The notes beneath the pieces were generated by a model. The model worked only from the letters and a program-made list of their open reading frames with translations. It did no database searches and was not told the DNA's origin. A stretch of 64,000 bases of DNA from Gammaproteobacteria bacterium (GTDB taxonomy: Bacteria; Pseudomonadota; Gammaproteobacteria; JAJPIJ01): positions 110,431 through 174,430 of the forward strand of contig JAWLAN010000009.1 in assembly GCA_041395385.1 (NCBI GenBank). The letters are read 5' to 3'. The position numbers and the translations under genes were made by a program. This document shows, piece by piece, positions 8,367 to 64,000 of the stretch (position 1 is the stretch's first letter; every line of letters starts with the position of its first letter).

Positions 8367-8598
8367 GGCGAGTACTGGAATCGGACGGGCATCGGGTGGA
8401 TGGTGTGTGCGGGTCCTGGGGGATCCCGGGAAATTATCCCATCCTAGCAGGAAATCCGGGAGGAGGCAGCCCGGACCGGGAGCGGCAATCAGCGTGGCCT
8501 GCCGCGGGCGCGCCAGATGGCCATAAGAGGCCGGGCAGGCCGGTGGCAACGTGAATTCGGTTACCATGGCCGCCAAAAAAAGGCTTGGCGGGTAGCGC

Positions 8599-10680
8599 AT
8601 GCAGAAACCGGATACACCGACATCCATGGGCTGGGGCCAGCGGCTGGCATGGGCCGTGGTCGCGGTGCTCGGGGCCGGCGCCGCCGGCGTCATCGCCCTG
8701 CATCGCGGCGAAAGCATCAACAGCATCTGGTTCATCGTGGCCGCCGTGTGCATCTATGCGCTCGGCTTCCGCTTCTACAGCGCCTTCGTTGCCGCGCGCG
8801 TGCTCGCGCTCGACGCCACGCGCGCCACGCCGGCGGAGCGGCTCAACGACGGCCGCGACTACCTGCCCACCAACCGCTGGATAGTCTTCGGCCACCATTT
8901 CGCGGCGATCGCCGGCCCCGGGCCCCTGATCGGGCCCACGCTGGCCGCCCAGTTCGGCTACCTGCCCGGGACGATCTGGATCCTCATCGGCGCGGTGCTG
9001 GGCGGCTGCGTGCAGGATTTCGTGATTCTGTTCTGCTCGTTGCGCCGCAACGGCCGATCGCTGGGCCAGATGGCCCGTGACGAGCTCGGGACGCTCGGCG
9101 GCGCGGTGGCGCTGATCGGGGTCATGGCGATCATGATCATCCTCATCGCGGTGCTCGGGCTCGTGGTCGTCAACGCGATGAAGCACAGCCCCTGGGCGAC
9201 CTCGACGGTGGCCGCGACGATACCGATCGCCGTGCTCGTCGGGCTGTACATGCGCAACCTGCGGCCCGGCCGGGTCATCGAGGGGACGGCGCTGGGCGTG
9301 GCGCTGCTCGTCTTTTCGGTCGTCGCGGGCGGCTGGATCGATCACCACCCGGTGCTGCGCGACTGGTTCGACTACGACGGTCCACAGCTCGCGCTCATGA
9401 TCATCGCCTACGGTTTCGCTGCGGCGGTACTGCCGGTGTGGCTGCTGCTCGCGCCGCGGGATTACCTCTCGACCTTCATGAAGATCGGCACCATCGTCGC
9501 GCTGGCCATCGCCATCGTGATCCTGCGGCCGGAGGTGAAGATGCCGGCGATGACGCAGTTCATCGACGGCACCGGACCGATCTTCGGCGGCAAGCTGTTC
9601 CCCTTCGTCTTCATCACCATCGCCTGCGGCGCCATCTCCGGCTTCCACTCTCTCATCTCATCGGGCACCACTCCGAAGCTGCTGGGCAACGAACGCGACG
9701 CCCGCTTCATCGGCTACGGCGCGATGGCGATGGAATCCTTCGTCGCCATCATGGCGATGGTGGCAGCCACGGTGCTCGACCCCGGGGTGTATTTCGCCAT
9801 CAACAGCCCCGCGGGCGTCGTCGGCGCCGAGGCCGCCAAGGCGGTGCAGACGATCTCGGACTGGGGATTCCCGGTGACGGTCGAGCAGATGACCGCGCTG
9901 GCCAGGGAGATGGGCGAGTCGACGCTGTTCGCTCGCACCGGCGGCGCGCCGTCGCTCGCGGTCGGCATGGCGAGCATCTTCTCGCAGGCCTTCGGCAACA
10001 CGCTGCTCGCGGTGTGGTACCACTTCGCGATCATGTTCGAGGCCCTGTTCATCCTCACGACGCTGGACGCCGGCACGCGGGTCGCTCGCTTCATGCTGCA
10101 GGACATGCTCGGCAACGTCTTCCCCGCCCTGGCCCGCACGAGCTGGTACCCGAGCGTGCTCCTCTGCAGCGCGCTGGTCGTCGCGGGCTGGGGATATTTC
10201 CTGTACATCGGAACCATCGACCCCCTGGGCGGCATCAACAGCCTGTGGCCGCTGTTCGGCATCGCCAACCAGATGCTGGCGGCGATCGCGCTGTGCGTCT
10301 CGACCACGGTCATCGTGAAGTCCGGCAAGCTTCGCTACGCCTGGGTCACGGCGGTGCCGCTCGCGTGGCTGGTCGTCATCACGACCGCCGCCGCGTGGGA
10401 GAAGCTCTTCAGCCCGGAGCTGCGGATCGGATTTCTCGCGCACGCGAGCGATCTCTCCGAGAAGCTCGCCGCCGGCGTGTTGCCGTCGGAGAAGGCCGCA
10501 CAGGCCCCGCAGCTCATCTTCAACGATCGGCTGGACGCGGTGCTGACGGCCTTCTTCCTGGTGACCACCTGGGTGCTGGTCATCGAGACGATGCGGGTCT
10601 GCCACGCGGCGGCCACGGGGCGCCGCTGTCCCCCGTCCACCGAGACGCCCTACGTGCGCACGCAACTCGCGGAGGCCTGA
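8599..10680 (+). CDS. cstA: carbon starvation protein A (peptide/pyruvate transporter)
   Basis: 693 aa polytopic membrane protein with CstA family motifs (FGHHFAAIAGPGPLIGP, GFHSLISSGTTPK). Confidence 0.85.
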   Translation: MQKPDTPTSMGWGQRLAWAVVAVLGAGAAGVIALHRGESINSIWFIVAAVCIYALGFRFYSAFVAARVLALDATRATPAERLNDGRDYLPTNRWIVFGHHFAAIAGPGPLIGPTLAAQFGYLPGTIWILIGAVLGGCVQDFVILFCSLRRNGRSLGQMARDELGTLGGAVALIGVMAIMIILIAVLGLVVVNAMKHSPWATSTVAATIPIAVLVGLYMRNLRPGRVIEGTALGVALLVFSVVAGGWIDHHPVLRDWFDYDGPQLALMIIAYGFAAAVLPVWLLLAPRDYLSTFMKIGTIVALAIAIVILRPEVKMPAMTQFIDGTGPIFGGKLFPFVFITIACGAISGFHSLISSGTTPKLLGNERDARFIGYGAMAMESFVAIMAMVAATVLDPGVYFAINSPAGVVGAEAAKAVQTISDWGFPVTVEQMTALAREMGESTLFARTGGAPSLAVGMASIFSQAFGNTLLAVWYHFAIMFEALFILTTLDAGTRVARFMLQDMLGNVFPALARTSWYPSVLLCSALVVAGWGYFLYIGTIDPLGGINSLWPLFGIANQMLAAIALCVSTTVIVKSGKLRYAWVTAVPLAWLVVITTAAAWEKLFSPELRIGFLAHASDLSEKLAAGVLPSEKAAQAPQLIFNDRLDAVLTAFFLVTTWVLVIETMRVCHAAATGRRCPPSTETPYVRTQLAEA

Positions 10681-39831: not shown

Positions 39832-40593
39832 TCAGTGCGGGGCGAGGCCGCGCGGCTTATATAACCGCACGGCATTGTTGTACAGCGCGTTCTCGGCGAC
39901 GGCCGCGTCGAGCGCGTCGCGCAGGCGCCTGATGTCAGCGGGCTCGAAGGGGCGCGGTGCGCGCGTGGACGGCAGGTCGGTGCCGAACAGCAGCGCGTGC
40001 GGGTTGATGCTGGCAATCTCGCGCACCACCGGCACCGGGTCGAAGTCCAGCCGCCCGAAGCCGGAGGCCTTCACCTGCACGCCGCGCTCAACCAGCTTGT
40101 AGATGCAGCTCAGTCCCGCGCGCGACAGGCCGAGATGGTCAATGATCACCCGTGGCAGTCCGAGCAGCGTGCGCAGCAGATCGGGCAGTTCGCCGCCGTC
40201 GATGTACAGCTCCACGTGCCAGCCGGCCAGCGCGTGCACCCGGCGCGCGAGCGTGGGCAACTGCGAGATGTCCGCGGACCCGCCGCGGCGGATGTTGAAG
40301 CGTATCGCCCGCACTCCGGCCGCGTTCAAACGCAGGATCTCCTCGTCGCCCACTTCGGGCGGCAGCTGCGTGACGCCGACGAAGTTGGGGCCCAGCGCAT
40401 CGAGGGCGGCCAGCAGGTAGCTCTGGTCGAATCCCTGGAACGAGGCGGAGACGACCGCCCCGCCGACGATGCCGAGCGGGCGCGTGCCCTCGCGGTAATC
40501 CCCGGAGGTGTAGGCGTCGGGCAGGTAGCCCTGGTTCACGACCAGCGGGAAGGCCGGGTCGATGATGTGCAGGTGGCTGTCGAAGATCATCAT
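39832..40593 (-). CDS. amidohydrolase-2 family metal-dependent hydrolase (TIM barrel)
   Basis: Start MMIFDSHLHI (metal-binding HxH) and a conserved Asp/His pattern of the amidohydrolase-2 family. Confidence 0.65.
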   Translation of the reverse strand: MMIFDSHLHIIDPAFPLVVNQGYLPDAYTSGDYREGTRPLGIVGGAVVSASFQGFDQSYLLAALDALGPNFVGVTQLPPEVGDEEILRLNAAGVRAIRFNIRRGGSADISQLPTLARRVHALAGWHVELYIDGGELPDLLRTLLGLPRVIIDHLGLSRAGLSCIYKLVERGVQVKASGFGRLDFDPVPVVREIASINPHALLFGTDLPSTRAPRPFEPADIRRLRDALDAAVAENALYNNAVRLYKPRGLAPH

Positions 40594-40712
40594 GTTTCTG
40601 CCCCCCGCCTCCACCATGCCTGACCTATGGCCCGTGTCGCGTCGCCCGCGGTCGTCGAGGACCGCTGGTCACCATCCCGAAGGATAACCCGAATCACCGG
40701 CGAGCCGCCCGC

Positions 40713-41861
40713 TCAGGCACTGGCGAGATACTCCGCGGCGCGCGCGAGGCTGTCCAGGCTGTGCGCGGAGCCGATGTAATCGAGCATCTCCCGCAACGCC
40801 GGCGGAAACTCCCCCGCCGCACTGATGCCCTCTCGCCCCAATAGCGGATTCAGCCACAGTATGCGGTGCGCGCGCTGCCGCAATGCCCGCACGGCCTCGA
40901 TCAGATCCTCCGGGGCATCGCTGTCCAGGCCGTCGCTCAGGACCACGACGACGGTGCGCCGGTCCACGTAACGGCCGGCGTACTGCCGGTTGAAGTGGGT
41001 CAGCGACTCGGCGATGCGCGTGCCGCCCAGCCACAGCTCGTTGCGGCCCTCCAGCCGCTTGCGCAGGGCGTCGGCATTCACCTCGCGGTACAGGCCGGTG
41101 ACGCGGAACAGCCGGGTGTGGAACACGAAGGCCTCCGCATCCGGAAAGACGCGCAGCAGCCCGCGGCCGAAGCGCGTGAGCAGCGGGCTGTAGCTCGCCA
41201 TGGAGTGCGAGACGTCCTGCAGCCAGATGAGCCGCGGCGGCTCGCGACGCCGCTCCATGAAACGCAGGTGCACCGGCAGCCCGCCGGTGGCGAGATTGCG
41301 GCGCATGGTCCGGCGCATGTGGATGTGCGTGCCGCGCGCCACCTCGCGCCGCCGGCGCGTCAGGCGCCGGCGTATGCGCAGCGCCAGCCGCTCGGCCAGC
41401 ACCTCGATCTCGCGCTGGTCGCGGCGATCGGTGAGAAAGCGGAAGTCGCTGCGCGAGAGGGTGTTCTGGCGGCTCGCCCCGGCGCCGATCTGATGGATCT
41501 CCGCCGAATAGACGTTGTCCGGATCCATGGCGTGCGCCAGGCCGGTCAGGCCGCCGCGCTGTTCCCGGCGGCGGGCGAGCAGGCGCGGGTCGATCGTCTC
41601 CGCCGCGCTCAGCTCGTTGGGCAGGGGCGCGCGCGCCGGGTACCAGTAGTTCTCGAACAGGGCATCGAAGCGATGCCACTGCGCGCTGTCGTGGCAGCTG
41701 AGCGCGCGCAGTCCGGTGCGCAGGAACTCGGCGTCGAGCGGTTCGCTCAGCCCCGCGGTGCGCAGCGCGTCCAGCGTCTCCTGCACGCCGATGCCGTAGC
41801 CCTCGCGCCGGAGCGCGCGCACGAAGCCGGCGATCCGCTCGGCGGGCGCGTCCGGACGCAT
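40713..41861 (-). CDS. VWA domain-containing protein (CoxE-like)
   Basis: 382 aa with a C-terminal von Willebrand A domain (VVVVLSDGLDSD). Immediately downstream of the MoxR ATPase (1-nt gap). Confidence 0.65.
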   Translation of the reverse strand: MRPDAPAERIAGFVRALRREGYGIGVQETLDALRTAGLSEPLDAEFLRTGLRALSCHDSAQWHRFDALFENYWYPARAPLPNELSAAETIDPRLLARRREQRGGLTGLAHAMDPDNVYSAEIHQIGAGASRQNTLSRSDFRFLTDRRDQREIEVLAERLALRIRRRLTRRRREVARGTHIHMRRTMRRNLATGGLPVHLRFMERRREPPRLIWLQDVSHSMASYSPLLTRFGRGLLRVFPDAEAFVFHTRLFRVTGLYREVNADALRKRLEGRNELWLGGTRIAESLTHFNRQYAGRYVDRRTVVVVLSDGLDSDAPEDLIEAVRALRQRAHRILWLNPLLGREGISAAGEFPPALREMLDYIGSAHSLDSLARAAEYLASA

Positions 41862-41862
41862 C

Positions 41863-42753
41863 TCAGCCGGCGGCCTTGAAGAGCAGGCCGCGCAGGGTGG
41901 CGCCGTCCAGCCGCTGGCGATCCTCCTGCGTCTTCATCAGGCATCCCAGCGTGTCGATGATGCGCTCGGCGTTCTCGGGCAGCGAGGGGATCTCCAGCGC
42001 CATCAGCGCCGCCGCCCAGTCGAGCGTCTCGGCCACGCCGGGGCGCTTGCGCAGGTCGAGCGCGCGCACGCCGTGCACGAACTTCACGACCTGGCGCGCG
42101 AGTTGCGCGTTGATCCCGGGCAGCCGGTTCTCGACGATGCGCAGCTCCTTCTCCACGCCCGGGTAGTCGAGGAAGTAGTACAGGCAGCGCCGTCGCAGCG
42201 CGTCGCTCAGCTCGCGGGTGCCGTTGGAGGTCAGCATCACGTGCGGGATCGAGCGTGCGCGGATGGTCCCGAGCTCCGGGATGCTCACCTGCCAGTCCGA
42301 GAGCAGCTCCAGCAGATAGGCCTCGAACTGCTCGTCGGCGCGATCGATCTCGTCGATGAGCAGCACCGGCGGCCTATCCTGCGTGATCGCCTTCAGCAGC
42401 GGGCGCGGCAGCAGAAAGCGCTCGCTGAAGATCTCCGCCTCGGTCTGCGCGAGGGGACGATCGGAGTGCTCCTGCAGCTTCATCGCCAGCAGTTGATGGG
42501 CATAGTTCCATTCATAGACGGCCTGGCCCACGTCCAGACCCTCGTAGCACTGCAGGCGGATCACCTGCGTGTCGTGCGCGGCCGCATAGGCCTGCGCCAG
42601 CGCCGTCTTGCCCACGCCGGCGTCGCCCTCGAGCAGCAGCGGGCGCTCGAGGCTTTCCATGAGCAGCAGCGTGGTGGCGAGCGGCCGGTCGGCGATGTAG
42701 CCGGCGCGGGCGAGGCGATCGCTCAGCGCAAGGATGTCCAGGTTCGTGGTCAT
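41863..42753 (-). CDS. MoxR-family AAA+ ATPase (CoxD-like)
   Basis: Walker A LLEGDAGVGKT, Walker B LLIDEIDRADE, sensor motifs; 296 aa. Confidence 0.8.
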   Translation of the reverse strand: MTTNLDILALSDRLARAGYIADRPLATTLLLMESLERPLLLEGDAGVGKTALAQAYAAAHDTQVIRLQCYEGLDVGQAVYEWNYAHQLLAMKLQEHSDRPLAQTEAEIFSERFLLPRPLLKAITQDRPPVLLIDEIDRADEQFEAYLLELLSDWQVSIPELGTIRARSIPHVMLTSNGTRELSDALRRRCLYYFLDYPGVEKELRIVENRLPGINAQLARQVVKFVHGVRALDLRKRPGVAETLDWAAALMALEIPSLPENAERIIDTLGCLMKTQEDRQRLDGATLRGLLFKAAG

Positions 42754-42754
42754 C

Positions 42755-43831
42755 TCAGCGGGCCTCGGCGCCGGCGGCGCGTTCGATGCGCGCGTGCAGC
42801 GCCTTGGTGCGATGGAAGGCGGCGATCGATTCGTGCACGAAGGTGAGCTTGCTGGTTATCTTCTCGGTGAGCACGAACGGATAGGCGTCGTGCTGGCCGA
42901 CGCTGCGGTTCATCTCGTTGAGCATGACGGTGAGCGAGGACCAGTCGGCGAGGCAGACCTGGAAGTCGTCCTCGCCGAGGGTCAGGTGCGTGAGCCCGAA
43001 GACGCCCGCGGTCTCCATGGCGTCGGCGATGTGCAGGTAATGCGCCCAGGTCTCGGCCCAGTCCTCCCAGGGGTGGGCGCGGGCGTAGGCGCTGATGTAG
43101 TCGCCGTGCCAGCGGCCCTTGTCGGCCTGTGCGTAATGCGCCTTCAGGGCGGCGGCGTAGTCGGCGCGCTCGTCGCCGAAGACGATGCGGAAGTTCTGCA
43201 GCCGGTTGGTCTCCTGCACCATCGGGCGCCAGTAGTAGTGACCGCTCTCGTGGCGGAAATGCCCGAGCAGCGTGCGGTAAGCCTCCACCATCTCGATGCG
43301 CGCGGACTCGCGCGCGGCCGGGTCGGCCTCCATCATGTTCACGGTGATGAGCCCGTTCAGGTGGCCGGTGCCGACGTATTCCTCATCGGCCCTGGGGTTG
43401 TAGCGCTTGTCGTCGCGGAAGGCGAAGGCCAGCCCCGATTCCGGATTCTGCAGCTTGCTGACGATGGGCAGCCGCAGCTCCAGCAGCGTGTACAGCATGC
43501 GGCGCTTGGCCGCCTCCATGTTCGTCCACCACAGCTGATAGCGCGGCTCCTCCAGGCTCGGCACCTCCTGGTTCAGGTTGCAGGCCAGGCAGTACTGCCC
43601 CGGGTCCTGCGCCGGCACCAGCCAGTTGCAGACGCTGTGGACGCGATAGTTGCGGCACAGGTGATAACCGCGCCGCGGGTCGCCGGCATCGCGGTAGGTG
43701 CGCCCCTCCTGCGGCTCGAGCGCGACCATGGCGCTGCGCGCCGGGTCGAAGCCCAGCTTGCGCTTGCAGCCCAGGCACTCGGTGTTCTCGAAGAACACCC
43801 GCCAGCCGCAGGTGCAGTAGTACGCCTTCAT
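42755..43831 (-). CDS. putative zinc-ribbon / HExxH zinc metallopeptidase family protein
   Basis: Start MKAYYCTCGWRVFFENTECLGCKRKLGF (zinc ribbon), then HESGHYYW (HExxH). Stop is 1 nt before the MoxR start. Confidence 0.55.
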   Translation of the reverse strand: MKAYYCTCGWRVFFENTECLGCKRKLGFDPARSAMVALEPQEGRTYRDAGDPRRGYHLCRNYRVHSVCNWLVPAQDPGQYCLACNLNQEVPSLEEPRYQLWWTNMEAAKRRMLYTLLELRLPIVSKLQNPESGLAFAFRDDKRYNPRADEEYVGTGHLNGLITVNMMEADPAARESARIEMVEAYRTLLGHFRHESGHYYWRPMVQETNRLQNFRIVFGDERADYAAALKAHYAQADKGRWHGDYISAYARAHPWEDWAETWAHYLHIADAMETAGVFGLTHLTLGEDDFQVCLADWSSLTVMLNEMNRSVGQHDAYPFVLTEKITSKLTFVHESIAAFHRTKALHARIERAAGAEAR

Positions 43832-55460: not shown

Positions 55461-55700
55461 TTACGCGACGTTCTGAAGCCTGTTGGCATAGTCGCGGCCC
55501 GATGTGGCGGGAGGCAATGGTTTCCCATCGGCCCGGTAAAGCTCAATCGCCTCTTCGACAATCTGGCACAGCTCGTCAAAGACCGCCTTCTCGTCTTGCC
55601 CATGACACCCGGCATAGATCAGCCCCGGGGCGCTCCCGACATAACATTGGTCCTCCTCGGACCACTCGACGATCTTTACGTACCTCGCACTGTCTTTCAT
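55461..55700 (-). CDS. hicB: HicB-family antitoxin (UPF0150/HicB N-terminal domain)
   Basis: 79 aa, MKDSARYVKIVEWSEEDQCYVGSAPGLIYAGCHGQDEKAVFDELCQIVEEAIELY, matching the HicB N-domain fold. ATG overlaps the upstream hicA remnant stop (ATGA). Confidence 0.6.
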   Translation of the reverse strand: MKDSARYVKIVEWSEEDQCYVGSAPGLIYAGCHGQDEKAVFDELCQIVEEAIELYRADGKPLPPATSGRDYANRLQNVA

Positions 55701-55892
55701 TTCTTCGATTCCTCAATCGCCAGATGCACGGCTCGGACTTGGTAATGCCGGGCATCCTCGCCCAGACTTCCTGAAATTGTAACCGGTTCCGCGACCTTCG
55801 GATGCACGAAGTTCCTGTGACTCCCTTTTCCTCCCCGGTCCACTTAGCCGGCGCGCTTCAGTTCAGCGATCAAACTCTGATCTTGCGCGCAT
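55697..55892 (-). pseudogene. hicA: hicA toxin gene remnant (frameshift + in-frame stop)
   Basis: Three-frame reconstruction: MRARSEFD (frame 1) / IAELKRAG* (frame 3, TAA where HicA has Trp) / VDRGGKGSHRNFVHPKVAEPVTISGSLGEDARHYQVRAVHLAIEESKK, which carries the HicA KGSHxxFxHP signature. Confidence 0.5.
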
Positions 55893-56104
55893 TTGTGCTC
55901 CCTGTCATTCAAATCGAATAACGTTGAGCATGACCGGCGCCCAAATAGCGGACGAAGGCCGCTGTTTAGGCGTCCGTGTCGATGCGCGTGTTAGAGCGCA
56001 CAAGCCTGTAAATTGACCGTAAATAGGTAGTGGCGACGGCGTTTGGGCCCGGGCCCTCACCGGCGCTGGTGCCTCCACGAAAAAGAATGCAGCAGCTTCT
56101 GATG

Positions 56105-57112
56105 TCAGATGCCCGAGGGCGGCATGGTGACGACGATCTTGCCCTTCGCGCGCCCCTGTTCCACATATGCCATCGCATCGAGCGTCTCGTCGAATGGGAA
56201 CGTGCGGTCGAGCACCGGACGCAGGGTGCCCGCATCATAGAGAGCGGCTAACGTCTTCAGTTGCGCGCCATCGGCCCGCATGAAGAAGAACGAGTAGCGC
56301 ACGCCTAGCTTCCTTGCCCGCGCCCGCACCTTGCGGCTCATCAGTGCCAACACAGGCCTCAGTAGTGGCCGGCCGACCTGCTCGGCGAACGCAGCGTCCG
56401 GTGGGCCGACGACGCTGATCGCCAGGCCACCAGGTTTGAGCACGGTCAGCGACTTCGCGAGGTTGTCGCCACCAAGGGAGTCGAGCACGACGTCGTAGCC
56501 GGAGAGCAACTCGGCGAAGTCTGCCTTGGTGTAGTCGATGACTTCGTTCGCGCCGAGGCCGCGCACCTTCTCCTCGTCGTTGCCGTGCGCAGTGGTGGCG
56601 ACGTATGCGCCCAGGTGCTTGGCGAGCTGGACGACTGTCGAGCCCAGTCCGCCCGCGCCAGCGTGAACGAGGACCTTCTGCCCCGGCTTGACCCGCGCGA
56701 GGTTGACCAGCGCCTGCCACGCGGCAAGCGCGACCAGCGGGACCGCCGCAGATTCTTCCATCGTGAGTGAGTTCGGCTTGAGGGCGATGTCCGCATAGTC
56801 GATGGCGATGTACTCCGCGAAGGCCCCGATACGCAGGTCGCGGGGTCGGGCGTAGATCTCGTCGCCGACTTTGTAGTCCCGCACCTCGGCGCCGACCCGC
56901 GTCACTACGCCCGCGACGTCGTGTCCGAGCACGAACGGCGTTTTGTACTTCAGGAGCAGCTTGAACTCGCCGTTGCGGACCATCTTGTCCAGCGGGTTGA
57001 TGCTGGCAGCACCCACCCGGACCAGAACGTCACGCGGCCCGATGGTGGGATCTGGCACTTGGGCAGCGCGGAGGCCGCTCTTGCCATAATTCTCGACGAC
57101 GAATGCCTTCAT
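56105..57112 (-). CDS. NADPH:quinone oxidoreductase / zinc-binding MDR family protein (Qor-like)
   Basis: 335 aa; GHDVAGVV and the NAD(P)-binding motif HAGAGGLGSTVVQLAK. Confidence 0.8.
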   Translation of the reverse strand: MKAFVVENYGKSGLRAAQVPDPTIGPRDVLVRVGAASINPLDKMVRNGEFKLLLKYKTPFVLGHDVAGVVTRVGAEVRDYKVGDEIYARPRDLRIGAFAEYIAIDYADIALKPNSLTMEESAAVPLVALAAWQALVNLARVKPGQKVLVHAGAGGLGSTVVQLAKHLGAYVATTAHGNDEEKVRGLGANEVIDYTKADFAELLSGYDVVLDSLGGDNLAKSLTVLKPGGLAISVVGPPDAAFAEQVGRPLLRPVLALMSRKVRARARKLGVRYSFFFMRADGAQLKTLAALYDAGTLRPVLDRTFPFDETLDAMAYVEQGRAKGKIVVTMPPSGI

Positions 57113-57201
57113 AACAGACCGCCTGTTGTGCGACGATTTCTGGGCTCTTGGTGGTGGTCGATGGTACGCTGCCGTTATCCCGTCATATGCGCTCTAACGT
57201 C

Positions 57202-57861
57202 CTAGCTAACCGGCGTGCCCAGCTGTTCGGGCACGTCCGGTTGAGCGCCTTGTTGGGCATTGAAGTTCATCGTTATGCGCGGCATTTTCACAGTGCTAAA
57301 GCATATCCGCGCATCGGCCTCTCGCCCCCACCACTCATCGATAGTGAATTGCATGGAGCCGCACGACAGCCAGTAGTGCCCATTGTTGATTCGTTGGCCG
57401 GCGTTGGCCTCTGAGAACACCACGGCCGCAAGCAGCGCAAAATTGATGGTGTCTGGAATGATCATTTCCTGCTGGCCGATGGTTATGGATCGGTGCTCGT
57501 TGCTCTGCCTCAGAACAACACCGAATCCTTTCGGAATATCGGTGCCATGAACGAGGTTGCACCGAAAGATTTCGTATACAACTTCCGAAAATAAAGATGG
57601 CCGATTCTTCAGCGCGATCCACGTGAACTTTGTTTCTTCCAAATTGATGCCAATTGCCAGCATGGGTTCGATAACCCACAGATAGCGATTGAAGGTATCA
57701 ACGAACCGGTCACGCACTCCTTTTTGTGGAAAGAGTAGCGCGCCAGTGCCGTCGAGTGCGGCGCACGCATGCATCAAGGCGGAGCCTAGCTTCCCATTTC
57801 CTGCATCATCGAGCGCGTAGGCGACTCGCTGCGCCATGTTCATCATAATGATGCCCAACAT
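57202..57861 (-). CDS. hypothetical protein in low-GC island (no recognisable family)
   Basis: ORF of 219-254 aa in the only roughly 50% GC segment of the window (about 57.2-58.0 kb). Start uncertain (Met at 57861/57846/57837; AT-rich promoter-like sequence at 57930-57990). Confidence 0.45.
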   Translation of the reverse strand: MLGIIMMNMAQRVAYALDDAGNGKLGSALMHACAALDGTGALLFPQKGVRDRFVDTFNRYLWVIEPMLAIGINLEETKFTWIALKNRPSLFSEVVYEIFRCNLVHGTDIPKGFGVVLRQSNEHRSITIGQQEMIIPDTINFALLAAVVFSEANAGQRINNGHYWLSCGSMQFTIDEWWGREADARICFSTVKMPRITMNFNAQQGAQPDVPEQLGTPVS

Positions 57862-58466: not shown

Positions 58467-59570
58467 ATGTCTGGGAATACCTTCGGAAAGTTGTTCACGG
58501 TGACCTCGGCCGGCGAGAGCCACGGGCCGTCCTACGTCGGCATCGTCGACGGCTGCCCGCCGGGCATGGCGCTGAGCGAGGAGGATCTGCAGCACGACCT
58601 CGACCGGCGCAAGCCGGGCACCTCGCGGCACACCACGCAGCGGCGCGAGGAGGACCGGGTGCGCATCCTCTCCGGGGTCTTCGAGGGCCACACCACCGGC
58701 ACGCCCATCGGGCTCCTCATCGAGAACCAGGACCAGCGCTCCAAGGACTACGGCAACATCCTTGATCGCTTCCGCCCCGGCCACGCCGACTACACCTACA
58801 ACCAGAAGTACGGCCTGCGCGACTATCGCGGCGGCGGGCGCGCCTCGGCGCGCGAGACCTGCAACCGCGTGGCGGCCGCGGGCCTCGCCCAGAAGTACCT
58901 GCGCGAGCGCTACGGCGTGCGCATCCGCGGCTATCTCGCCCAGCTCGGGCCGCTGGCCCTGGGATGCAACGATCTGGAGGCGGCGGATCACAACCCGTTC
59001 TTCTGCGCCGAGCCGGATCGGGTGCCGGAGCTCGAGGCCTACATGGACGCGCTGCGCAAGGAGGGCAACTCCATCGGCGCGCGCATCAACGTGATCGCCG
59101 CCGGCGCGCCGGCCGGGTGGGGCGAGCCCATCTTCGATCGCCTCGATGCGGACATCGCGCACGCGATGATGGGCATCAATGCCGTCAAGGGGGTCGAGAT
59201 CGGCGCCGGCTTCGCGAGCGTCGCGCAGAAGGGCACCGAGCACCGTGACGAGATGACGCCGCAGGGATTCCTCAGCAACCACGCCGGCGGCGTGCTGGGC
59301 GGGATCTCCACCGGCCAGGACATCCTGGTCAGCATCGCGCTGAAGCCCACCTCCAGCATCCGCCTGCCGGGCCACACCATCGACGTCGAGGGCAAGGCCA
59401 CCGAGGTCGCCACCCACGGCCGCCACGACCCGTGCGTCGGCATCCGCGCCACACCGATCGCCGAGGCAATGCTGGCGCTGGTGCTCATGGATCACGCCCT
59501 GCGCCACCGCGCGCAGAACTGCGACGTCACCCCCTCCACACCGGCGATCCCCGCCTCGCCCGAGCGATGA
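58467..59570 (+). CDS. aroC: chorismate synthase
   Basis: [33 protein letters not shown]... canonical AroC; 367 aa. Confidence 0.9.
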
Positions 59571-60751
59571 CACCGGCAGGGGGCGTGCCCTACGTCCGCC
59601 TGTCGGGGTTTTACTTCGTCTATTTCGCCGTCGTCGGCGCGCTGGTCCCGTACTTCAACCCCTACCTGCAGGCGAACGGCTACGACGCCGAGCAGATCGG
59701 CCAGGCCACCGCGCTGCTGCTGGTCGGGCGCATCGTCGCGCCGGGGATCTGGGGGTGGCTGGCCGATCGCACCGGCCAGCGCCTGCGCATGGTGCAGTCC
59801 ACCACGCTGATGGCGCTCATCGCCTTCGCCGGCGTCTTCTGGGCCGACAGCTTCGCGAAGATGGCGGTGGTGCTGTTGCTCTATGGCCTCTTCTGGAGCG
59901 CCTCGCTGCCGCAGTTCGAGGCGATCACGCTCAATCACCTGGGCGACCGGCTGCAGGACTACACCCGTATTCGCCTCTGGGGCTCCATCGGCTTCATCGT
60001 GACTGCGGGGCTGCTCGGCGCACTGCTGCAGCGCTGGGGCATCTCGCTGCTGCCGGCCATTCTCGTCGGGCTCATCGCGCTGGTGTATCTGGCGGGCGCG
60101 GCCATCCCGCCGGAGCCGCCGTCGCCGCATGTGCACGTGCAGAAGGCGTCGTTCATGGAGATTCTGCGCCGGCGGGGCGTGGCGGTGCTGTTCTTCTCCA
60201 CCTTGGTGATGCAACTCTCCTGCGGGCCGTACTACGCCTTCTACACGATCTTCCTCGAGGAGCGCGGCTACTCGCGCACGGTGGCGGGCCTGCTGTGGGC
60301 GCTCGGCGTCGCGGCCGAAGTGGTGCTGTTCACGGTCATGCACCGGCTGCTGCCGGCGTGGGGGCTGCGCCGGCTCATGCTCATCAGTCTCGCCGCCGGC
60401 GTCCTGCGCTGGCTGATGGTGGGCTACGGCGTGCAGTCCGCGCTCGTCATCGTGCTTGCGCAGCTCATGCACGCGGCGACCTTCGGCATGCATCACGCTG
60501 CCGCGGTGCAATACGTGCACCGATATTTCGTCGGCCGGCACCAGGGGCGCGGGCAGGCGCTGTACAGTTCAATCGCTTACGGCGTCGGCGGCGCGGTGGG
60601 CGCGCTCGTCACCGGTTATCTGTGGACGCACCTCGGGCCGGCGCGCACCTTCGCCGTCGCCGCCCTGGTGTGCGCGATCGGCCTGGTCGCCGCGTGGCGG
60701 TTCCTGGAGGACGACCCGGGCCATCACGCCGGGCGCGCCGCGGCCGCTTGA
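59567..60751 (+). CDS. MFS transporter (HcaT/PPP-family-like, 12 TM)
   Basis: Start [34 protein letters not shown] overlaps the aroC stop (ATGA). Confidence 0.7.
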
Positions 60752-60815
60752 CCTCTTCCGGGGTGCCGCCTAGGCTGGCTGCAACGATCCACGTTCAAAC
60801 CGTGCAGGCTCCGTC

Positions 60816-61577
60816 ATGACGTACTGTCTGGCCGTACAAGTGAAGAGCGGGCTCATCTTCGTCTCCGACTCGCGCACCAATGCCGGTGTCGATCAGGTCA
60901 GCATCTTCAGCAAGATGCACACCTTCGGCCGCGACGGCGATCGGCAACTGATATTGTTGTCGGCGGGCAATCTCGGCACCACGCAGGGTGTGGTCGCGCA
61001 GCTGCACCGCGACATACGCTCCAACGCCGACGAGAATCTCTTCACCATTGCCGATCTGAACGAGGCCGGCGACTACGTCGGCCGCCTCAATCGCGAGCAG
61101 CAGAGCAAGGTCACCGGCGGCGGCGCCACCTTCGAGGCGAGCTTCATCCTCGGCGGGCAGATCGGAGCCGAGCCGCCGGGCGTGCTGCGCATCTATCCGG
61201 AGGGCAACCACATCTGCGCCACCGACGAGACGCCCTACCTGCAGATCGGCGAGAGCAAGTACGGCAAGCCCATCCTCGATCGCATCGTCGCGCCGTCCAC
61301 CAGCCTAGAGCAGGCGGCGCTGTGCGCGCTGGTGTCGATGGACTCGACCATCCGCAGCAACGTCACGGTCGGCCCGCCGATCGAGGTGCTGGTCTACCGC
61401 CGCGACACGCTCACCGCCGGCGACTATCTGAAGCTCGACAACGACAGCGCCTACCTGCGCGATCTGAAGCGCAGCTGGGAGGAAGGCCTGCGGGATGCCT
61501 TCATGAAGCTGCCGCCCATCAACTGGGCGAGTGCCAAGGATCGCGCCGCGGACTCCCGCAACGTCGTCGCCCTCTAA
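60816..61577 (+). CDS. Anbu (ancestral beta-subunit) proteasome-like Ntn hydrolase
   Basis: MTYCLAVQVKSGLIFVSDSRTNAGVDQVSIF... with Thr2 nucleophile; 253 aa, typical Anbu. Confidence 0.8.
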   Translation: MTYCLAVQVKSGLIFVSDSRTNAGVDQVSIFSKMHTFGRDGDRQLILLSAGNLGTTQGVVAQLHRDIRSNADENLFTIADLNEAGDYVGRLNREQQSKVTGGGATFEASFILGGQIGAEPPGVLRIYPEGNHICATDETPYLQIGESKYGKPILDRIVAPSTSLEQAALCALVSMDSTIRSNVTVGPPIEVLVYRRDTLTAGDYLKLDNDSAYLRDLKRSWEEGLRDAFMKLPPINWASAKDRAADSRNVVAL

Positions 61578-61627
61578 AGCGGTCGCCGTGCCCGCGCAGG
61601 CGGTCATCGGCGGCAACTCACGAAAAT

Positions 61628-61840
61628 GGGTTCCCGCTTTCGCGGGAACGACGGGGAGAGGTTCCTTCCGCGCCGACCAAATATCAGAGCGGGAATGCCG
61701 ATCGCGGCTCATGCGCCGTTCCGATCGCGGGGCCGGCGCGCCTTGATGTCGAGCGTAGTCGGGAACGTAGCTCGACATCGCGGTAGCGCGCGGGACAGGA
61801 TGTCCCGCGAGCGGTAGCCGGCCCCGCGATCGGAATGGCG
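61628..61840. repeat. nested palindromic / REP-like element between convergent Anbu and alpha-E genes
   Basis: Hairpin gttcccgc-tttc-gcgggaac (61630-61649). Long IR 61716-61736 vs 61817-61838 (20/21). Inner palindromes gatgtcgagc...gctcgacatc and cgcgggacaggatgtcccgcg. 15-mer ccgcgagcggtagcc shared with 39735-39749. Confidence 0.65.
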
Positions 61841-61874
61841 CGGGCGGACTCGAATTACCGCCGTGCTGTTTGGC

Positions 61875-62831
61875 TCAGGGTTTCGGCGCGAAGGCGAACC
61901 AGTTCGCCGAGACCTCGTTGTGCACGCGTGCGAGCCAGCGCTGCATGGTGTCGATCTGCCTGCGCATCCCGTGGCTCATCAGCCGGGCGATGTCGCGCCG
62001 GCGGACGACGTCGCGCACCTTCTGCACCGTCTCCAGGGGCTGCTCGTGGCGGGGGAACTGCAGCAGGCAGGACTCGACCTCGTTCAGGCAGTGCATCACC
62101 GAGCGCGGGAAGTCCTTGTCGAGCACCAGGTACTTGACCACCTCCACCGCCTTCACGCGCGACTGCACGTGCTGGTGGTACATCTCGTAGGCGCTCATGC
62201 ACAGCAGTACGCTCATCCAGCGGATGTTGGTGAGCGGCGTGGCCAGCGCCCCGGCGACCTGCTGCTGGACGTCGGTGGCCTGCTGGCCGGCCACACCGAG
62301 ATCGATGACGCGCGTGGTCATGTCGGCGCGCTCGATGTTGCGGCCCAGGCGCGCGAAGTGATACGCGGCATCGTGGCTCATGGTGCCGGAGAGCAGGCCG
62401 TTCAGGAGCTGGCAGCGCTCCACCACGTCGCGCAGGAATCCGCTGCGGTGGTTGCGGGCCACCGCCTTGCCGGCATGCTCCTTCACCTGCCAGTAGGTGT
62501 CGTTGATGAGCTCCCAGGCCTCCGTCGGGATGACCTCGCGCGTGGTGCGCGCGTTCTCGCGGGCGTTCTGCACCGATTGCAGGATGGAGGAGGGGTTGTG
62601 CTCGTCGGGCAGCATGAAGCGCACGACGTGCCGCTCCTCGGCGACGCCATAGCGATCGACGTAGCTCGCGTGCACCCCCAGGACCTCCACCATCACCTCC
62701 CACAGCGCCGTGGCCTCGCGCGGCGCGCCGAGGATCATCTCGGTCACCGCGTTGACCATGCGTGCGGTGTTCTCGGCGCGCTCCATGTAGCGGCCGGTCC
62801 AGTACATCCTCTCTGCCACGCGCGAGAGCAT
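61875..62831 (-). CDS. alpha-E domain protein (DUF403)
   Basis: Start MLSRVAERMYWTGRYMERAENTARMV, the canonical alpha-E N-terminus; 318 aa. ATG 2 nt after the upstream ATP-grasp stop. Confidence 0.75.
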   Translation of the reverse strand: MLSRVAERMYWTGRYMERAENTARMVNAVTEMILGAPREATALWEVMVEVLGVHASYVDRYGVAEERHVVRFMLPDEHNPSSILQSVQNARENARTTREVIPTEAWELINDTYWQVKEHAGKAVARNHRSGFLRDVVERCQLLNGLLSGTMSHDAAYHFARLGRNIERADMTTRVIDLGVAGQQATDVQQQVAGALATPLTNIRWMSVLLCMSAYEMYHQHVQSRVKAVEVVKYLVLDKDFPRSVMHCLNEVESCLLQFPRHEQPLETVQKVRDVVRRRDIARLMSHGMRRQIDTMQRWLARVHNEVSANWFAFAPKP

Positions 62832-62833
62832 GA

Positions 62834-64000
62834 TCAGGCCTTCCTCCTGTCCTCGGGCGTGGCGACGATCCAGGTGTCCTTGCTGCCGCCGCCCTGCGAG
62901 GAGTTCACCACGTAGGAGCCCTTCACCAGCGCCACGCGCGTCAGCCCGCCCGCGGTCACGTAGGTGTCCTTGGCCTGCAGGATGAAGGGGCGCAGGTCGA
63001 CGTGACGCGGCTCGATGCGATTGCCGCACAGCGTCGGCACGGTCGACAGCGTGATGAGCGGCTGTGCGACGTAGTTGCGCGGGTCGGCCTGGATGCGGCG
63101 CTTGAATTCCGCGATCTCGCGCCGGCTCGCCTGCGGGCCGATCAGCATGCCGTAGCCGCCGGACTCGTTCGCCGGCTTGATCACCAGCTTGTCGACGTTC
63201 GCGAGCACGTGCTCGCGCTGCTTCTCGTCCATGCAGAGATAGGTCGGTACGTTCGGCAGGATGGGGTCCTCGTCGAGATAGTAGCGGATCATCTCCGGCA
63301 CGTAGGCGTACACCGCCTTGTCGTCGGCCACGCCGCAGCCCGGCGCGTTGACCAGCGCCACGTTGCCGTGGTGCCAGGCGCGCATCAGCCCGCGCACGCC
63401 GAGCATGGAGTCCGGGTTGAAGGTCTGCGGGTCGAGGAACAGGTCGTCGATGCGGCGGTAGATCACGTCCACGCGCGAGAGACCGGAGATGGTGCGCATG
63501 TACACGCAGTCGTCGTCGCTGACCACCAGGTCGGAGCCCTCGACCAGCTCCACGCCCATCTCGCGGGCGAGGAAGGCGTGCTCGAAGTACGCCGAGTTGT
63601 AGATCCCCGGGGTGAGCACCACGATCTCCGGCTTGTCCTGCTGCCGCGGGCTGAGCGACACCATCATCTCGAACAGCCGCTCGGTGTAGTCGTCCACGGG
63701 CAGGATCTCCTGGTCCGCGAACAGCTCCGGCAGCACGCGCTTGGTGAGCATGCGGTTCTCGATCATGTAGGACACGCCCGAGGGCACGCGCAGGTTGTCC
63801 TCCAGGACGTAGAGGGTGCCGTCCTTGTCGCGCACCAGATCGGTGCCGCAGATGTGGGCCCAGGCACCATATCGAGGCTGCATGCCCACGCACTGGGGGC
63901 GGAAATTCTTCGACTTGGCGAGCACCGCCTCCGGCACCACGCCGGCGCGCAGGATGCGCTGGGCGTTGTAGACGTCGTGGATGAAGCAGTTCAGCGCCGT
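62834..64000 (-). CDS. circularly permuted ATP-grasp type 2 protein (partial; N-terminus beyond window end)
   Basis: C-terminal about 390 aa of a CP-ATPgrasp_2 protein. The frame stays open to the window edge (...[29 protein letters not shown]...). Confidence 0.75.

Follow-up and report, generated by a model that had tools for sequence, protein, structure and literature searches.

Anbu, a proteasome-like Thr1 hydrolase, has been described as the last member of a co-directional four-gene operon with the conserved order ATP-grasp, alpha-E, transglutaminase-like, Anbu (PMC6376114), found for example in Pseudomonas aeruginosa (PA1733) and Yersinia bercovieri (PMC5666114, PMC6376114, PMC3235984). 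Neither peptidase activity of Anbu nor stable complexes with its operon partners were detected (PMC6376114). Valas and Bourne remarked in 2008 that Anbu does not always share one operon with its partners, that shared regulons occur where the genes lie apart, and that no Anbu genome was entirely without a transglutaminase domain (PMC3235984). Here we analyse an Anbu locus at the end of a 64,000-nucleotide stretch of DNA, termed the window, from a member of the Gammaproteobacteria (assembly GCA_041395385.1, contig JAWLAN010000009.1, positions 110,431 to 174,430 of the forward strand). Its Anbu gene lies on the plus strand and faces, across a palindrome-rich spacer, the genes for an alpha-E protein and a circularly permuted (CP) ATP-grasp protein on the minus strand.

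Neighbourhoods in which CP-ATP-grasp and alpha-E are combined with alternative peptidases (transglutaminase-like, NTN-hydrolase/Anbu or Zn-metallopeptidase) were reportedly described by Iyer, Abhiman, Burroughs and Aravind in 2009. The locus studied here resembles such neighbourhoods in its constant core of ATP-grasp and alpha-E with a variable peptidase set, and in the presence of a Peptidase_Mx protein with an N-terminal zinc ribbon; it differs in that the Peptidase_Mx gene lies 17 kb from the core and is coupled to genes for a MoxR/CoxD-like AAA+ protein and a CoxE-like VWA protein. With the canonical operon it shares an Anbu of the Anbu-1 type with Thr1, Asp17 and Lys, and CP-ATP-grasp and alpha-E genes that lie next to Anbu and are joined by translational coupling. 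Unlike in that operon, Anbu is on the opposite strand, convergent on alpha-E and preceded by aroC and an MFS transporter gene, instead of co-directional with and downstream of the ATP-grasp, alpha-E and transglutaminase genes. No transglutaminase-like gene lies near Anbu either, whether between it and alpha-E or elsewhere in the cluster. In lacking co-directionality and an adjacent transglutaminase the locus agrees with most of its clade. Our literature search for a convergent or a metallopeptidase Anbu layout found no relevant description.

The locus is a further Anbu/alpha-E/CP-ATP-grasp cluster of an already known system, intact and ordinary. Its convergent layout is a departure from the textbook operon, as the preliminary description of this DNA correctly stated with the four-gene operon as its standard, though nothing in the departure is specific to this genome. 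That description called the locus rearranged; comparison of relatives indicates with high confidence that it has instead the inherited, lineage-normal layout of a broad gammaproteobacterial Anbu-1 branch. With an intact, ordinary system in the arrangement usual for its lineage, the window leaves no special rearrangement to explain.

Gene order in close relatives and in the wider clade

The arrangement aroC-MFS-Anbu facing alpha-E-ATP-grasp is identical in the nearest relatives (comparison sequences are cited by L numbers): L001, a contig of GCA_964464715.1 that encodes exactly the same Anbu protein as the window, L091 (98% Anbu identity), L094 (96%) and L002 (94%). Further out, the same layout recurs in L003 (86%), L004 and L009 (72%) and L005 and L008 (70%). 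No transglutaminase was found in any of these relatives within the fetched flanks of ±3 to 10 kb, and the aroC-MFS-Anbu block is kept in all of them (L001-L005, L008, L009, L091 and L094). Down to 70% Anbu identity, then, no examined relative departs from the convergent, transglutaminase-less layout. The preliminary description had itself allowed that relatives sharing the convergent arrangement would make this the normal architecture of the lineage, and that is the outcome. The more distant cousins L006 and L007 are still convergent but carry a transglutaminase of ~1100 amino acids (aa) with the domains Bact_transglu_N, Transglut_core and DUF2126, whereas the canonical operon has a small COG1305 protein; the large gene is divergent from ATP-grasp in L006 and lies between Anbu and alpha-E in L007.

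For the wider clade, genomes were scanned at one per species with an Anbu alignment. The 80 loci that scored best among the matches listed (47-72% identity; the representative of this species itself is outside them) were classed by layout with purpose-built hidden Markov models (HMMs), and 53 of them have at least 3 kb of sequence upstream and at least 5 kb downstream. Among these 53, all drawn from the matches listed, the commonest class by this indicative count is convergent with no transglutaminase in the locus (21/53). The convergent arrangement with a transglutaminase in the locus accounts for 7, and in 2 loci a large transglutaminase gene comes after Anbu and both face alpha-E and ATP-grasp. 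Divergent loci number 5; another 5, from Methylococcales, are co-directional and encode a fused ATP-grasp-alpha-E protein as well as small transglutaminases; 1 has ATP-grasp, alpha-E, Anbu and a large transglutaminase all co-directional; 5 have Anbu alone; and 7 are other mixtures. In all 80 listed loci the convergent layout was counted 29 + 8 times, and all 7 closest relatives have it as well. In none of the 80 loci (among the matches listed) do ATP-grasp, alpha-E, a small transglutaminase and Anbu follow one another as separate genes in the textbook order. When the Anbu proteins were placed on a neighbour-joining tree, most branches carried the convergent layout, and the clade of the window is without exception convergent and free of a transglutaminase.

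These comparisons bear on the possibility that a canonical four-gene operon was recently broken here, an inversion or deletion at the spacer repeats having flipped Anbu and removed the transglutaminase. The spacer does bear long inverted repeats, tied to real inversion and deletions between strains, and the four-gene order has been described as predominant (PMC6376114), but we hold such a break to be extremely improbable. Gene order is the same to 70% Anbu identity, including strains whose 43-64 bp spacers are free of palindromes; the inverted and deleted segments lie wholly inside the spacer; neighbouring clades are convergent too; and Anbu sits in the conserved aroC-MFS-Anbu block.

That same block raises the question of whether Anbu stands beside alpha-E and ATP-grasp by chance, and works with aroC-MFS or alone, outside the amidoligase system. 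Anbu is co-directional with aroC-MFS at a 64-bp gap, the block is kept at 70% identity and above, and there are the related loci in which Anbu is alone (5/53). Set against this, Anbu adjoins alpha-E/ATP-grasp across ~50 species with differing upstream genes, be the layout convergent, divergent or co-directional, while its linkage to aroC-MFS is restricted to the small clade of the window, and chance adjacency is accordingly very unlikely. We favour the reading that Anbu would still work with the ATP-grasp/alpha-E amidoligase pair, through kept adjacency and not through co-transcription. The fact that Anbu stays beside the pair in dozens of species, in all orientations, argues for a functional link that can do without co-transcription.

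Several points weigh against taking the convergent layout as the inherited norm. The class frequencies are indicative and do not amount to a census, because most of the genomes compared come from metagenome assembly and the 80 loci are those with the highest scores among the matches listed. The neighbour-joining tree carries no bootstrap support. The absence of a transglutaminase covers ~71 kb of the lineage, made up of 60.8 kb on the upstream side (window) and 10 kb on the downstream side (L001 and L002), which is less than a whole genome. Finally, the co-transcription of Anbu with aroC-MFS and the terminator role of the spacer palindromes, both proposed below, are deduced from sequence features.

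This outcome is of minor importance for the window itself. What the comparison yielded besides may be of modest use to the Anbu field: over ~80 species the constant core is Anbu, alpha-E and CP-ATP-grasp, a transglutaminase near Anbu is optional and often replaced by a metallopeptidase, and co-transcription with Anbu is not required.

A second system was seen in Methylococcales (L055, L056, L059, L061, L063, L065, L078) and Cellvibrio (L028, L046, L048, L049). It consists of a large transglutaminase (TGcore + DUF2126), a fused ATP-grasp-alpha-E protein of ~860 aa and one or two small transglutaminases. Co-directional with Anbu, these genes precede it in Methylococcales and follow it in Cellvibrio, and in L062 and L078 they occur together with a convergent alpha-E/ATP-grasp pair. 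Two Anbu paralogues lie less than 10 kb apart in L014 (10001-10750 and 19502-20302) and in L077 (2018-2809 and 5426-6232). One of the L077 paralogues is inside the co-directional row ATP-grasp, alpha-E, Anbu, large transglutaminase.

Genes and putative transcription units

Pfam and NCBIfam searches of the Anbu open reading frame (ORF) gave zero matches at E ≤ 0.01, and its identity was therefore taken from solved structures. The whole ORF aligns with five solved Anbu structures, best with 5loy (3.3e-76, residues 2-237), which is the Anbu-1 consensus design, and further with 5nyw (1.2e-64), 5lox (1.4e-64), and 5nyj and 5nyf (~1e-57), the weakest of the five E-values being 4e-57. The N-terminus reads MTYC, placing the catalytic Thr directly after the initiator Met, without a propeptide. 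An alignment of the window Anbu with eleven relatives (A1) shows no variation at D18 or K33 and almost none at T2 (Met-inclusive numbering). The protein thus has the catalytic residues by which Anbu is recognized, namely Thr after Met plus Asp17 and Lys32/33 (PMC5666114, PMC6376114). Counted from Thr1, its S1 pocket is T20/F30/S48/L52/T55. The pocket of Pa-Anbu, T20/F30/T48/L52/S55, is the amphiphilic Anbu-1 pattern, as opposed to the basic pocket of Anbu-2 (PMC5666114), and by its S1 pocket the window protein is of the Anbu-1 type.

Domain searches confirmed the gene calls of the preliminary description, with Anbu downstream of aroC and MFS and facing alpha-E over the spacer (Table 1). In the ATP-grasp gene the PF14403 match spans profile positions 22-374. 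This gene is cut by the window and not truncated, because its frame stays open up to base 64000; the orthologue is 487 aa in the sister assemblies L001 and L002, and the DNA is 98.9% identical between the window and L001. Its stop codon TGA (62836-62834) and the ATG of alpha-E (62831-62829) are separated by 2 nt, a coupling read directly from the sequence and already given in the preliminary description. CP-ATP-grasp and alpha-E are therefore adjacent to each other as well as beside Anbu, at a distance of 297 bp, as members of the system are.

Table 1. Features of the Anbu locus and of the rest of the window discussed in the text (window coordinates)
Feature	Coordinates	Strand	Evidence or remark
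Anbu (Anbu-1 type proteasome-like Thr1 hydrolase), intact, 253 aa	60816-61577	+	full-length match to solved Anbu structures
alpha-E protein, 318 aa, convergent with Anbu	61875-62831	-	PF04168 1.5e-86, profile positions 1-294 of 294
CP ATP-grasp (amidoligase-type), C-terminal 388 codons in window, N-terminus past window end	62834-64000	-	PF14403 1.7e-159, PF04174 6.3e-133
aroC (chorismate synthase), first gene of co-directional aroC-MFS-Anbu block	58467-59570	+	PF01264 1.7e-132
MFS_1_like transporter, 394 aa, translationally coupled to aroC	59567-60751	+	PF12832 3.6e-109
Strain-variable palindrome-rich convergent spacer, 297 bp	61578-61874	.	inverted repeats, fold
Module 1: short GC hairpin GGGTTCCCGCTTTCGCGGGAAC with T-run on minus strand, REP-like, terminator-like for alpha-E transcript	61608-61656	.	
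Module 2: ~198-bp nested palindromic element	61677-61874	.	inner 25-nt arms 61713-61737 and 61817-61841, 79-nt core with two hairpins
Zn-ribbon + Peptidase_Mx metallopeptidase, 358 aa	42755-43831	-	PF15887 1.7e-94, PF10005 1e-27
MoxR/CoxD-like AAA+ ATPase	42753-41863	-	
CoxE-like VWA protein	41861-40713	-	
Block from Peptidase_Mx to Amidohydro_2	39832-43831	-	
HicB/HicA-like pair	about 55461-55894	-	
Low-GC segment, ~1.9 kb	55919-57853		missing from L001
Zn-dependent dehydrogenase-like gene	56105-57112	-	
Orphan ORF, 254 aa	57202-57966	-	no Pfam match

An ATGA overlap joins the aroC stop to the MFS start, and on the basis of this overlap and of the orthologous calls in L001 and L002 the MFS start codon was placed at 59567. 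A gap of 64 bp then separates the end of the MFS gene from the start of Anbu. A scan confined to sigma-70-type sites found no sigma-70-like promoter in 60600-62000. Because of the short gap, the lack of such a site and the conservation of the block, Anbu would be read as the third and last gene of an aroC-MFS-Anbu unit. On the other strand, ATP-grasp and alpha-E would form a translationally coupled unit read from a region shared with the divergent glcE- and glcF-like genes that flank the ATP-grasp gene in L001-L004.

The palindromic spacer

The spacer contains 22 inverted-repeat pairs, including a pair of 25-nt arms that are 96% complementary, and its predicted RNA fold has z = -7.15 relative to shuffled sequence. 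In an Rfam scan of 60500-62100 there were only far-sub-threshold matches, with no family reaching threshold. Module 1 bears the sole terminator-like site found in the region (minus strand 61649-61630, with the tail CCATTTTCGT); the window, L002 and L094-L103 carry the module, and L001 and L091-L093 lack it. When the spacer was searched by blastn against a plasmid database, the only match was that of the module 1 hairpin AATGGGTTCCCGCTTTCGCGGGAACG (61615-61656) to Neisseria gonorrhoeae chromosomes, at 88% over 43 nt with a weak E of 5e-4. This match recalls the short repeats of REP-like kind in beta- and gammaproteobacteria.

The outer arms of module 2 reuse native sequence just downstream of the alpha-E stop. 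In L001 the module is flipped at the same site (8405-8602): its reverse complement aligns across ~198 nt, a blastn match to the opposite strand covers 199 nt at 93.5% identity, and the flanking DNA is 95-99% identical. All other carriers (L094-L097, L101, and the partial L088, L089 and L103) have the orientation of the window. An assembly artefact in L001 was considered and judged unlikely, although reads would be needed to exclude it, because the flip reaches ~35 nt past the 25-nt perfect arms into imperfect repeats and has its own substitutions.

Close strains differ widely in spacer length: L092 has 48 bp, L091 and L093 have 64 bp, L002 has 183 bp, L001 has 219 bp, and the window, L094-L097 and L101 have 296-297 bp; the more distant L003 and L005 have 43-58 bp. 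The 64-bp form retains a 16-nt remnant of the right arm of the element. Several short metagenome contigs break off inside the palindromes, as is expected of repeats or strain heterogeneity. Since relatives with the same gene order (L003, L005, L091-L093) have the short spacers of 43-64 bp without the element, the palindromes are of later origin than the gene order. The REP-like hairpin and the ~198-bp nested palindrome are recent, strain-variable insertions into an original gap of ~45-65 bp, which have since undergone deletion and one inversion among strains while leaving the genes untouched.

As read from these alignments, the spacer repeats mark inversion and deletion of spacer modules (~80-250 bp) alone, halting at the flanking stop codons. 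The suggestion in the preliminary description that the inverted repeats reflect an inversion or deletion event thus holds for the spacer modules, given the L001 flip and the length variants, and fails for the genes; what was observed there is confirmed, and its interpretation is partly supported. Both transcription units probably end in the spacer, and the palindromes would act at most as hairpin terminators or 3′-end stabilisers.

The modules resemble REP/BIME, ERIC/IRU and MITE-like elements, being imperfect palindromes of tens to ~200 bp in a transcribed gap between convergent genes, polymorphic between strains in presence and orientation, and prone to breaks in metagenome assemblies. They differ in that the multi-copy character of those elements was not seen: apart from the weak Neisseria match there was no second copy in the window, where a motif search of the 64 kb returned only the spacer itself, in about 130 loci, where only orthologous spacers were found, or in metagenome contigs, where an exact 29-mer scan for the spacer element gave nothing. 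A 19-mer scan of metagenome contigs produced 24 single matches of only 20-22 nt, which were judged to be chance. The spacer may serve as a small-scale case of palindromic insertions in convergent gaps arising, flipping and vanishing without disturbing gene order.

With its inverted-repeat boundaries and its two orientations at one locus (window and L001), placed exactly between two convergent transcription units, the ~198-bp element also resembles an inverton, and might be a switch that steers read-through or antisense transcription between the Anbu and alpha-E units. We rate this as very improbable. In contrast to invertons, the element has no promoter-like site inside and no invertase or other recombinase gene was seen among its neighbours; it is dispensable, being wholly missing from close strains; and its orientation varies between diverged strains rather than within one population. 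It is flipped in one of ~8 assemblies, and that copy is 6.5% diverged, which looks like a fixed strain difference.

In two genomes with short spacers alpha-E is called 29-35 aa longer than the 318 aa of the window, in L003 (4270-5313, 347 aa) and L004 (10673-11734, 353 aa), and in L004 the called gene runs 87 nt into the end of Anbu. These longer calls reflect either a genuine extension at the C-terminus or genes that were called too long.

Transglutaminase, Peptidase_Mx and neighbouring features

The preliminary description reported no transglutaminase gene in the window, and searches of the 64 kb agree: the lowest E was 1.5 when two large transglutaminases from related loci served as tblastn queries, and 9.3 for an HMM made from the cores of 57 transglutaminases associated with Anbu. 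It had also named a gene just past the end of the window as something to look for. None was found within ±10 kb in the sister assemblies L001 and L002, and the position is taken by the glcE/glcF-like genes, as it is throughout L001-L004.

One explanation is that the system is complete but dispersed, with a transglutaminase, either the large Bact_transglu_N + Transglut_core + DUF2126 form or a small COG1305 form, encoded elsewhere in the genome and acting in trans. We regard this as a serious possibility, though short of an even chance. It would agree with the observation by Valas and Bourne that no Anbu genome was fully without a transglutaminase domain, and with the shared regulons that they saw (PMC3235984). 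Peptidase_Mx has been displaced in this lineage, so partners can move off, and cousins have large transglutaminases beside the cluster. The negative searches in the window and in the next 10 kb of the sister assemblies speak against it, as does the lack of a transglutaminase within ±10 kb in 21 of 53 related species (among the matches listed). With the large transglutaminase of the nearest cousin as query, 120 matches were listed, all 62-69% identical and from other organisms; this search gave nothing attributable to the lineage, is uninformative on this genome and cannot prove absence.

The converse proposal, that sub-lineages of the gammaproteobacterial Anbu-1 branch including this one lack a transglutaminase altogether, with the often-cited four-gene order as no rule in that branch, convergent Anbu as the usual arrangement and the Zn-ribbon Peptidase_Mx as the commonest extra partner, is tentative and on balance doubtful. 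If it were true genome-wide, the transglutaminase would be dispensable for Anbu function, contradicting the 2008 remark (PMC3235984), and the hunt for the Anbu substrate would be redirected to the product of ATP-grasp and alpha-E.

The Peptidase_Mx protein of the window is 72% identical to its L004 orthologue, whose gene lies just 1.2 kb upstream of aroC. In ~21 of the 80 related loci (among the matches listed) Peptidase_Mx is found between Anbu and alpha-E. In the window it is likely a distal partner of the Anbu cluster, and since it is 17 kb off, the set of partners near Anbu in this lineage is reduced to alpha-E and ATP-grasp.

Downstream of Peptidase_Mx follow, at 1-nt gaps, the genes for the AAA+ ATPase and the VWA protein, and then Amidohydro_2. 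This block (39832-43831 in the window, 5320-9319 in L128) is kept both in a sister assembly and on a Logan contig. Other genomes of the clade have Peptidase_Mx between Anbu and alpha-E without the AAA+ and VWA genes. As the literature notes Anbu to be without an AAA+ partner, the coupling of Peptidase_Mx to an AAA+ protein may merit a look.

Upstream of aroC, the ~1.9-kb segment that is missing from L001 has a GC content of ~0.50, compared with ~0.68 around it, and is probably a strain-specific insertion. It carries the dehydrogenase-like gene, the orphan ORF begins inside it, and the HicB/HicA-like pair adjoins it.

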